64,000 nt of DNA, from the NCBI RefSeq assembly GCF_988242995.1, contig NZ_OZ547043.1; one strand, written 5' to 3'. Shown piece by piece: positions 56,239 through 62,697 of this stretch (position 1 is its first letter; the number at the start of each line of letters is the position of its first letter). Under the pieces are notes generated by a model that was not told the origin of the DNA, did not search any database, and saw nothing but the letters and a program-made list of their open reading frames with translations. The position numbers and the translations under genes were made by a program.

Positions 56239-57444
56239 ATGTCATGGCAGCAATTCAAACACGCCTGGTTGATTAAATTCTGGGCACCCATCCCTGCGGT
56301 CATCGCGGCGGGTATTCTCTCCACTTACTATTTTGGCATTACTGGCACCTTTTGGGCTGTCACGGGTGAATTTACCCGTTGGGGCGGCCAGCTCCTGCAG
56401 CTGTTTGGCGTCCATGCTGAAGAGTGGGGTTATTTTAAAATTATCCATCTGGAAGGATCGCCATTAACCCGCATCGACGGGATGATGATCCTCGGCATGT
56501 TTGGCGGCTGCTTTGCCGCAGCGCTGTGGGCCAACAATGTCAAACTGCGCATGCCACGCAGCCGTATCCGCATTATGCAGGCCATTATTGGCGGTATTAT
56601 CGCTGGTTTTGGCGCGCGTCTGGCAATGGGCTGTAACCTGGCGGCGTTCTTTACCGGTATTCCTCAGTTCTCGCTGCATGCCTGGTTCTTTGCCATCGCC
56701 ACTGCCATTGGTTCATGGTTTGGCGCACGCTTTACCCTGCTGCCCATCTTCCGTATTCCCGTGAAAATGCAGAAAGTTTCTGCCGCCTCACCGCTGACGC
56801 AAAAACCGGATCAGGCGCGGCGTCGTTTTCGTCTCGGGATGCTGGTCTTTTTCGGTATGCTGGGCTGGGCGCTGCTCACGGCGATGAACCAACCAAAACT
56901 GGGGCTGGCAATGCTGTTTGGCGTCGGCTTTGGTTTACTGATTGAACGTGCGCAAATCTGCTTTACTTCGGCGTTCCGCGATATGTGGATCACCGGACGT
57001 ACCCATATGGCGAAAGCAATCATTATCGGTATGGCGGTGAGTGCCATCGGGATCTTCAGTTACGTACAGTTAGGCGTTGAACCCAAAATCATGTGGGCGG
57101 GACCAAACGCGGTAATTGGTGGTTTACTGTTTGGTTTTGGCATCGTGCTGGCAGGCGGCTGCGAAACCGGCTGGATGTACCGCGCGGTAGAAGGCCAGGT
57201 GCACTACTGGTGGGTCGGTCTGGGCAATGTGATCGGCTCGACGATTCTGGCGTATTACTGGGATGATTTCGCTCCGGCGCTGGCCACCGACTGGGACAAA
57301 ATCAACCTGCTGAAAACCTTTGGCCCGATGGGTGGCCTGCTGGTGACATATTTGCTGTTGTTTACTGCGCTGATGTTGATTATCGGCTGGGAAAAACGCT
57401 TCTTCCGCCGTGCGGCACCGCAGACTGCTAAGGAGATCGCATGA
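56239..57444 (+). CDS. yedE: YedE/YeeE-family inner membrane transporter (selenium/thiosulfate-related), 401 aa
   Basis: ORF track; polytopic membrane protein; translationally coupled to yedF. Confidence 0.9.
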   Translation: MSWQQFKHAWLIKFWAPIPAVIAAGILSTYYFGITGTFWAVTGEFTRWGGQLLQLFGVHAEEWGYFKIIHLEGSPLTRIDGMMILGMFGGCFAAALWANNVKLRMPRSRIRIMQAIIGGIIAGFGARLAMGCNLAAFFTGIPQFSLHAWFFAIATAIGSWFGARFTLLPIFRIPVKMQKVSAASPLTQKPDQARRRFRLGMLVFFGMLGWALLTAMNQPKLGLAMLFGVGFGLLIERAQICFTSAFRDMWITGRTHMAKAIIIGMAVSAIGIFSYVQLGVEPKIMWAGPNAVIGGLLFGFGIVLAGGCETGWMYRAVEGQVHYWWVGLGNVIGSTILAYYWDDFAPALATDWDKINLLKTFGPMGGLLVTYLLLFTALMLIIGWEKRFFRRAAPQTAKEIA

Positions 57445-57674
57445 AAAATATCGTTCCTGATTACCGCCTTGATATGGTGGGTGAACCCTGCCCTTATCCG
57501 GCAGTCGCAACTCTTGAGGCGATGCCGCAGTTAAAAAAAGGGGAAATCCTGGAAGTGGTGAGCGACTGTCCACAGTCGATCAATAATATTCCACTGGATG
57601 CGCGTAATCACGGCTATACGGTGCTGGATATTCAGCAAGACGGGCCGACCATTCGTTATTTAATTCAGAAGTAA
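57441..57674 (+). CDS. yedF: TusA-like sulfurtransferase-fold protein YedF (77 aa)
   Basis: ORF track; conserved CPxP motif (EPCPYP). Confidence 0.9.
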   Translation: MKNIVPDYRLDMVGEPCPYPAVATLEAMPQLKKGEILEVVSDCPQSINNIPLDARNHGYTVLDIQQDGPTIRYLIQK

Positions 57675-57780
57675 TCCCTCATTCCCGCTGTGGCCCACAG
57701 CGGGAACATCGTTGCCTCTGACACATAGATTTTACCCGCCCCCTCTCCTATTCTTTTCAGTATGATCTCAGGAGGTTTCT

Positions 57781-58449
57781 ATGTGTGGACGCTTTGCCCA
57801 ATCCCAAACGCGTGAAGATTACCTTGCGCTTCTCGCGGAAGATATTGAACGCGATATTCCCTACGATCCCGAACCCATTGGCAGATACAACGTCGCGCCG
57901 GGAACCAAAGTTCTTCTGCTCAGTGAACGTGATGAACACCTTCATCTGGATCCGGTTTTCTGGGGATATGCTCCCGGATGGTGGGATAAACCGCCGCTGA
58001 TTAACGCCCGCGTAGAAACTGCGGCCACCAGTCGTATGTTTAAACCGCTCTGGCAACATGGTCGGGCAATCTGTTTTGCCGATGGCTGGTTTGAGTGGAA
58101 AAAAGAAGGCGACAAAAAACAGCCTTATTTTATCTATCGCGCTGATGGACAACCTGTTTTTATGGCCGCGATAGGTAGCACACCGTTTGAGCGCGGTGAC
58201 GAAGCCGAAGGATTTTTAATTGTCACTGCAGCAGCAGACCAGGGTCTGGTAGATATTCATGACCGCCGCCCGCTGGTTCTGTCGCCAGAAGCTGCACAGG
58301 AATGGATGCGGCAAGAGATTGGCGGTAAAGAAGCATCAGAAATTGCTACCAACGGCTGTGTGCCAGCAAACCAGTTCACCTGGCACCCGGTATCGCGCGC
58401 GGTGGGTAATATCAAAAACCAGGGAGCGGAGTTAATTCAACCGGTTTGA
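57781..58449 (+). CDS. yedK: SOS-response-associated peptidase (SRAP) YedK, abasic-site DNA-protein crosslinking enzyme (222 aa)
   Basis: ORF track; N-terminal MCGRF with catalytic Cys2. Confidence 0.92.
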   Translation: MCGRFAQSQTREDYLALLAEDIERDIPYDPEPIGRYNVAPGTKVLLLSERDEHLHLDPVFWGYAPGWWDKPPLINARVETAATSRMFKPLWQHGRAICFADGWFEWKKEGDKKQPYFIYRADGQPVFMAAIGSTPFERGDEAEGFLIVTAAADQGLVDIHDRRPLVLSPEAAQEWMRQEIGGKEASEIATNGCVPANQFTWHPVSRAVGNIKNQGAELIQPV

Positions 58450-58843
58450 TAAGCCAGGAGACTATTGATCAATAATACTGCGTCATAAGAAATCTCTATT
58501 AGACAATAGTAGACGCTCCTTCCACATGCGCCACAAGAAACCTCTATTCCAGTGACACAATTACGCCTGATTATTTCCCTAGCCCGGAATATGAATAAAA
58601 ACATCAACAAAGATTAAATTATTCAAACGTTACTGTTGCGTCTGCGGTCGTAGCAACATCCGACGTGGTGATGAGTGTTAAAAGAGACACTCTGATGTTC
58701 AGAGGGGTTATCGCGTTTACGGATCGTGGATGGCAGAAAACTTTCAGGATCAGGTATCCATTTTAAACCAGAAATTGAGTGAGTTTGCCCCATCCATGCC
58801 CCAAGCGGTGAGATTGGAAGTAATTAACAACAGGTTACAAAAC

Positions 58844-59158
58844 CTACACCTGCATGGACATCACTTCCTGATACGCCGCCACCAGCTTATTACGCACCTG
58901 AATCCCCATTTGCATAGAAACTGAGGCTTTTTGCATATCGGTCATCACATCGTTTAACGCCACGCCGGGTTCACCGAGGGTGAATTTTTCTGCCTGCGTG
59001 CGGGCAGCTGTTTGTGTATCGCTAATGCGATCGAGCGCGGCGTGCAGCTGCCCGGCAAAACTAATGGTCGGTTGCGGCAGTGAATCCTGCGCACGCGCAC
59101 TCATCGCCGTAGCCTGTAACTGGCTGATAACCCCTTCAATCCCCTGTATCGCTGACAT
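58844..59158 (-). CDS. fliE: flagellar hook-basal body protein FliE (104 aa)
   Basis: ORF track 58844..59188; start set at [10 protein letters not shown]. Confidence 0.93.
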
Positions 59159-59372
59159 TTTCGTCTCCTGGATAATTTCTGGTAACAAAGCCTACCAGTA
59201 AGTCAATAAGATAAAGGCGCTAAATAACAACAAAAAAACGGGTTTATTGGCGGATAGAAAAAAACGAAAGCACAAATAATGGCAGCGTCAATTTTTCGAG
59301 TTTGCTGACCCGGGAGTGAGTCTTGTTCCACTTTGCCAATAACGCCGTCCATAATCAGCCACGAGGTGCGCG

Positions 59373-62697
<3,325 letters not shown>

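Follow-up and report, generated by a model that had tools for sequence, protein, structure and literature searches.

A probable decayed prophage scar in the compact yedK-fliE spacer of Escherichia coli, beside the phage attachment core formed by the fliE 3' end

The yedK-fliE spacer

Analysis of the window, meaning the whole 64,000-nucleotide stretch of DNA examined here, revealed a spacer of 394 bp (58450-58843) bordered by two genes. To the left lies yedK (57781-58449, plus strand), encoding a 222-aa SOS-response-associated peptidase and annotated in both strain War and K-12; to the right lies fliE (58844-59158, minus strand), which encodes a 104-aa protein, is annotated in strain War, and has a 3' end that coincides with the phage attachment core (attB) described below. 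Gene identities follow strain War as annotated in RefSeq; the two sequences are 99.9% identical across the yedK-fliE stretch. The original prediction of a gap of about 390 bp devoid of plausible coding sequence was borne out, as the list of open reading frames (ORFs) contained no credible gene in the spacer, only frames of 33-64 aa, one of which is the frame of an integrase pseudogene. The 16 bp immediately following yedK (58450-58465) were common to all E. coli forms, and homology to strain APEC O1 stopped at 58465. The 3' end of yedK itself is divergent in some E. coli lineages, in which the gene encodes 223 aa and has a different stop region (L091 5001-5672; L092 and L093, both 8001-8672). 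One of these sequences (L091) showed 82% identity to window positions 58400-58500, indicating that the polymorphic zone starts inside the yedK end.

Scans of the spacer for elements other than genes gave results at chance level. An Rfam search returned no match at E ≤ 1, a promoter scan found no promoter-like site, and the single terminator-like hairpin, a weak one on the minus strand (58704-58690) some 140 nt beyond the fliE stop codon, was within chance expectation (one site in the spacer compared to 0.7 ± 1.1 in shuffled sequences). A functional RNA or regulatory element was dropped as a candidate on these grounds. The broader idea that the spacer is retained for a function of its own, for example to terminate the convergent yedK and fliE transcripts or to encode a small RNA, could draw on that one hairpin and on the finding that the compact allele is 97-100% conserved over many strains. 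However, this conservation equals that of ordinary E. coli backbone, and unrelated DNA replaces the interval in B2 and other strains; taken with the outcome of the three scans, we consider a retained function highly improbable.

The arrangement found in the window is not rare. The compact allele was present in 1,011-1,157 of 5,426 complete E. coli genomes, about a fifth, ETEC H10407 with identical flanks being one of them, and a K-12-like interval containing yedL and yedN was present in approximately 1,176 genomes. A coverage-based count of a third form, carrying a DLP12-like remnant, is distorted by the genuine DLP12 prophage at argU.

Integrase remnant, attachment core and prophages beside fliE

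The fliE-proximal part of the spacer (58680-58843, plus strand) comprises the 3' remnant of an integrase gene (intG) and a phage P arm, which together were 88% identical to the int 3' end and attP of Escherichia phage IdasGreatGrand (L088 2648-2842). The remnant, at 58688-58825, corresponds to codons 386-431 (approximately 46 codons) of a 434-aa tyrosine integrase and matched the IdasGreatGrand integrase at 38 of 46 residues (blastx, E = 2e-22), as well as PHROG 27762 (2.8e-11); PGAP places a partial 'integrase' at the corresponding position of strain War (58688-58810 in window coordinates). The remnant reads on the plus strand toward the core and ends 18 bp before it, and full-length integrase homologues occupy the same core-adjacent position in strain FLI21 and in free phages.

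The core itself, CTACACCTGCATGGACATCA (58844-58863), consists of the stop codon and the last 17 coding nucleotides of fliE on the reverse strand, and is identical at 20 of 20 positions to the attP core of IdasGreatGrand within a 184-bp alignment at 88% identity. Two free phages with a matching attP were present in the phage collection, Escherichia phage IdasGreatGrand (PP925829.1) and Enterobacter phage CobraSix (NC_071003.1). An attachment-site-like sequence had been anticipated inside the short spacer; such a sequence is indeed present, but it is formed by the 3' 20 bp of fliE rather than by the spacer. Only the copy beside fliE was found, with no second copy detected in window positions 57001-60000 when up to 4 mismatches were allowed, whereas both core copies are present in APEC O1, FLI21 and TnpB-bearing variants. 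In a full-text literature search we found no description of fliE as an attB, and searches on yedK/fliE/intG, IdasGreatGrand, CobraSix and espR3/yedN returned nothing on the yedK-fliE locus; what is new here is the definition of an attachment core at the fliE 3' end, together with a matching free phage.

Two further features of the core region varied or recurred among the sequences compared. First, the core differs by a synonymous serine switch in fliE, with TCC in the window and in B2 strains and AGC in K-12 (L002 5201-5220) and one Citrobacter, a pattern expected of a fliE end replaced by different phage-borne cores rather than of point mutation. Second, short TGCCCC(A/T)-type motifs were found in core-adjacent arms in the window (58784-58803), Gifsy-2 (L103 124-143) and PHB10 (L104 3675-4000), as well as in the IdasGreatGrand arm and the B2 remnant (L003 9706-9740). 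Repeats of the TGCCCCA type are probably arm-type Int binding sites, still putative, of a shared integrase family.

Other E. coli strains carry prophages at this same core, and these, along with the attP homology, upheld the original proposal of an integration hot spot next to fliE. In the B2 strain APEC O1, the order is yedK, 16 bp, a core copy matching at 19 of 20 positions (core'), a 4.3-kb DLP12-like remnant, an integrase fragment (int'), the core and fliE, and in B2 strains generally the 16 bp after yedK directly abut the core copy. The APEC O1 remnant includes an nmpC-like porin gene, ybcM, ybcL and emrE, which are 85-92% identical to K-12 DLP12, and has a copy of a 20-bp direct repeat, CTACACCTG[G/C]ATGGACATCA, on either side, one 16 bp past the yedK stop and the other at the fliE end. 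In FLI21, the order is yedK, the compact spacer, core, a newer prophage of approximately 12.9 kb, core and fliE, and the compact spacer is built as in the window, old integrase remnant included. The newer prophage encodes gtr, bet, exo, xis and a full-length, frameshifted tyrosine int, with int and the excisionase gene abutting fliE, and its yedK-side junction matches the P' arm of IdasGreatGrand. This IdasGreatGrand/CobraSix-type P' arm occurred in 16 of 5,426 genomes and, in both of the two inspected (FLI21 and 63-2), was located at the yedK-fliE locus. In strain 63-2 (L105 12001-15202), the core and P' arm are followed by an S24 peptidase gene, a hypothetical gene and an IS1 that connects to a truncated fliR; the segment from fliE to most of fliR is deleted beside the prophage remnant, and the strain is presumably non-flagellate. 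Based on the direct repeats in B2 strains and FLI21, the homology to the IdasGreatGrand attP and the P' arm match in FLI21, sequence comparison assigns 58844-58863 to a phage attachment core and 58680-58843 to the integrase-side arm of an old integration.

The compact spacer had originally been described as the empty form of the site. With respect to yedL and yedN this description holds, as both are gone, but the intG remnant and P arm are retained at 58680-58843. Nor did an unoccupied junction occur elsewhere in the species, as a synthetic query representing the virgin junction (yedK, 16 bp, core and fliE) had a full-length match in none of the 5,426 complete E. coli genomes. Outgroups were found through FliE protein clusters, since a YedK scan of genome contigs named only 'Escherichia sp. 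ESNIH1' within Escherichia. An integrase remnant abuts fliE in E. albertii and E. fergusonii, where it is cut at different points, and also in Franconibacter pulveris, where the order is yedF, yedK, an acyltransferase gene, int' and fliE; in Salmonella, one unrelated 117-aa ORF lies between yedF and fliE. The uninterrupted state was seen only in Citrobacter, with the yedF stop of C. amalonaticus followed by 82-92 bp and then fliE, and with no yedK and no trace of an integrase. Enterobacterial yedK sequences (70-96% aa identity) also occurred on contigs titled Lachnospiraceae MAG, Chryseobacterium, Streptococcus infantis and Streptomyces morookaense (L006, L015, L058 and L074), the first of which has the B2-type yedK-core-fliE structure; these four contigs are probably contamination in public assemblies.

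Two indels relative to K-12

In K-12 MG1655, the yedK stop (2010489) and the fliE 3' end (2012700) are separated by 2,210 bp, and K-12 therefore does not have the spacing of about 390 bp found in the window. Its annotation (NC_000913.3) places in this interval yedL, the yedN pseudogene and an intG pseudogene annotated 'cryptic prophage PR-G'. The K-12 gene order given in the original prediction was essentially correct, but yedM has no separate feature in the K-12 RefSeq table.

BLAST comparison to K-12 resolved the spacer into a mosaic in which three K-12 pieces are joined across two gaps. Window positions 57400-58506 correspond to K-12 yedK and 57 bp beyond; a 67-bp piece (58510-58576), which in K-12 lies between the yedL and yedN cassettes, is 94% identical to its K-12 counterpart (L002 3653-3719); and positions 58573-59400 match K-12 from just past yedN through intG and fliE at 96.4% (L002 4932-5757). 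The last of these includes a 103-bp piece (58577-58679) located in K-12 between yedN and the integrase homology, which had no match to the IdasGreatGrand integrase. What the window lacks relative to K-12 are approximately 605 bp containing yedL, encoding a GNAT acetyltransferase (L002 3048-3652), and approximately 1,212 bp containing yedN, an espR3-type leucine-rich-repeat gene (L002 3720-4931), whereas the intG remnant beside fliE is present as in the K-12-type islet. The notion of a single lost islet was thus not supported, as the alignment contains two separate indels split by the retained 67-bp piece. A single islet breakpoint marked by flanking direct repeats was rejected along with it; there are two indels, and the only repeat pair, R1 and R2, is kept in both copies.

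R1 (58479-58500, TGCGTCATAAGAAATCTCTATT) and R2 (58527-58548, within the 67-bp piece) were identified by repeat search as copies of a 22-nt imperfect direct repeat, and in K-12 they bracket yedL. Junction A (58507-58509) marks the position where K-12 holds about 603-605 bp including yedL, as determined by BLAST and junction comparison. Across this junction, K-12 reads TAGACAAAG, the yedL segment and TAGACGC; FLI21 reads TAGACAAAG directly followed by TAGACGC, keeping the K-12 left flank clean to the base; and the window reads TAGACAATAG followed by TAGACGC. Junction B (58573-58576), where K-12 holds approximately 1,212 bp including the yedN/espR3-type gene, has a 4-nt ambiguity arising from BLAST overlap and is identical in strain GSH8M-2, which has yedL but not yedN. 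Strain VL7S7 contains a single hybrid R1/R2 copy in which three informative bases change from R1-type to R2-type, as expected of recombination-mediated deletion between the repeats.

The direction of the two indels was inferred from this junction anatomy, with only three informative positions in the hybrid repeat. If the compact form were instead the older one, K-12-like strains would later have gained yedL (approximately 605 bp) and yedN/espR3 (approximately 1,212 bp) as separate insertions, and the term empty would then be right for these two cassettes, but not for the prophage scar. Such gains could account for the independent variation of the segments, with both present in K-12 and O157, only yedL in GSH8M-2, only yedN in VL7S7 and neither in the window. 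They would also suit espR3 as a type III effector, a class of genes usually acquired horizontally, and the flanks at junction B, which differ somewhat between haplotypes with and without yedN, suggesting an old polymorphism. However, neither segment has a target-site duplication, terminal repeats, a transposase or an integrase, and in K-12, as in many other strains, yedN is decaying as a pseudogene. In addition, the window keeps short stretches from the edges of the K-12 yedL segment that are missing in the single-repeat VL7S7, in which the repeat resembles an R1 × R2 recombinant, that is, a deletion product. Overall, we consider two later insertions unlikely. Loss appears to be the better description, with the junctions favoring a probable secondary loss of yedL, at least twice independently, and of yedN.

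Further forms inspected included yedN without yedL, yedL without yedN, and DLP12-like remnants with IS200/IS605 and TnpB. In the O157:H7 strain 7.1_Anguil (L004 9780-13818), the GNAT gene, 67-bp piece, espR gene and integrase remnant are tandemly duplicated, and the yedK-fliE interval thereby contains espR3, espR4 and the int remnant in duplicate.

Proposed origin of the spacer as a scar, possible provenance of yedK and relation to known systems

Taken together, these results lead us to propose that the 394-bp spacer is a maximally decayed prophage scar rather than a vacant site, from which yedL and yedN have most probably been deleted, a reading to which we assign a probability of roughly 0.8. 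In the order of events that we infer, a lambdoid temperate phage of the IdasGreatGrand/CobraSix type would integrate at the 20-bp core at the fliE 3' end by means of its tyrosine integrase, with the phage copy of the core restoring the C-terminus of FliE. The prophage interior would have been lost after this old integration, leaving a hybrid junction of integrase 3' end, P arm and core beside fliE (58680-58863) and approximately 230 bp of leftover islet DNA beside yedK. K-12-like strains would have kept yedL and the yedN/espR3-type effector gene inside this leftover islet, and the window allele would have lost both, most probably through deletion, at two junctions independent of each other. 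With its core intact, the allele may still be able to receive phage at present. The compact spacer is, in sum, a common and ordinary allele of a known prophage-scar locus.

Some observations count against a prophage scar. There is no yedK-side core in the window, and the element is therefore not bounded by repeats here. Furthermore, the islet type shared by the window and K-12 parts from the B2 type at the very base at which the core copy of the latter begins, yet has no core at that position, a coincidence with the core boundary that random deletion does not explain. A phage origin of the yedL/yedN islet DNA and of 58466-58679 is only assumed; neither the K-12 islet DNA nor the homologue of 58466-58679 had a match in 50,697 phage records.

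The scar could also extend further to the left than the spacer. The stretch from yedK through int' (57711-58863) may represent one collapsed prophage, with yedK at the P'-arm end and intG at the integrase end, in which case the true vacant site would be the yedF-fliE junction as found in Citrobacter. PHB10 has an int gene, a 326-bp attP-like region with repeated TTTGCCCCTA motifs and a yedK homologue in the same orientation (84% aa), and in Gifsy-2 an int gene and a yedK-like sequence (79% aa) occupy opposite ends and share a strand, a layout that is the same as that of yedK and int' here. No yedK is found between yedF and fliE in E. albertii, Citrobacter or Salmonella, and Franconibacter independently has yedF, yedK, an acyltransferase gene, int' and fliE in that order. 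Among 80 retrieved yedK loci, 42 had at least one of the phage-type markers tested, and in 39 of these 42 a PHB10-type umuC was located within 6.6 kb of yedK. However, in B2 strains the core copy is found on the right-hand side of yedK (yedK, 16 bp, core'), indicating that yedK was already chromosomal flank when the B2 phage integrated, and no core copy or arm sequence was detectable between yedF and yedK. The adjacency of yedF and yedK in Franconibacter could also mean that yedK was ancestrally present and then repeatedly lost. Weighing these points, we regard an arrival of yedK as prophage cargo as a serious possibility that falls slightly short of even odds.

Among the retrieved loci from other Enterobacteriaceae (L007-L085), those with a nearby umuC usually had it convergent to yedK, as in PHB10, cold-shock genes were present at some loci, and three loci (L025, L026 and L060) had an integrase 3' fragment just upstream of yedK. 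The gene content of such loci points to a putative mobile yedK-csp-umuDC module. A wider scheme, in which the fliE 3' end would be a hot spot for lambdoid phages across Enterobacteriaceae, yedK would be domesticated cargo and 57711-58863 would be a nested scar of serial integrations, is tentative, with a probability slightly below even. If yedK did come as phage cargo, this would bear on how the biology of yedK, a model bacterial SRAP/HMCES-type protein, is read.

Returning to the reading that we prefer, a decayed scar within the spacer, its main consequence is a correction at the level of annotation, as the yedK-fliE spacer of about a fifth of complete E. coli genomes would be a scar with a reusable core and not a never-occupied site. 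Defining a 20-bp attB at the fliE 3' end, along with a phage that has a matching attP, should aid the calling of prophage boundaries and helps explain deletions in the flagellar region, such as the IS1-mediated loss of fliE to most of fliR in 63-2.

With the K-12 yedL-yedN-intG islet, the window allele shares the locus, the flanking genes, the intG and fliE-proximal sequence (96%), the 57 bp after yedK and the 67-bp inter-cassette piece. In contrast to K-12, it lacks the yedL segment of approximately 605 bp and the yedN segment of approximately 1,212 bp, differs by a 2-bp indel inside the int remnant, and has a core in the 20/20 phage form with a TCC serine where K-12 has two substitutions and an AGC serine. 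With the DLP12-like remnant of B2 strains, it shares the attachment core and the int' fragment beside fliE, homologous from 58707 on, but the B2 strains have kept both cores and the 4.3-kb interior, whereas the window has neither the interior nor the yedK-side core.

The integrase 3' end, P arm and 20-bp core of IdasGreatGrand and CobraSix are collinear with window positions 58680-58863. Unlike these phages, the window retains only the last 46 or so of the 434 integrase codons, has lost the integrase stop region through an 11-bp deletion, and lacks the P' arm, the core being followed instead by the body of fliE. Finally, lambdoid and P4-like integrases direct prophages into the 3' ends of host genes in such a way that the coding sequence is restored, and the arrangement at fliE is of the same kind, in that the core overlaps the end of the gene and the phage copy would preserve the terminal ...MSMQV and the stop codon.
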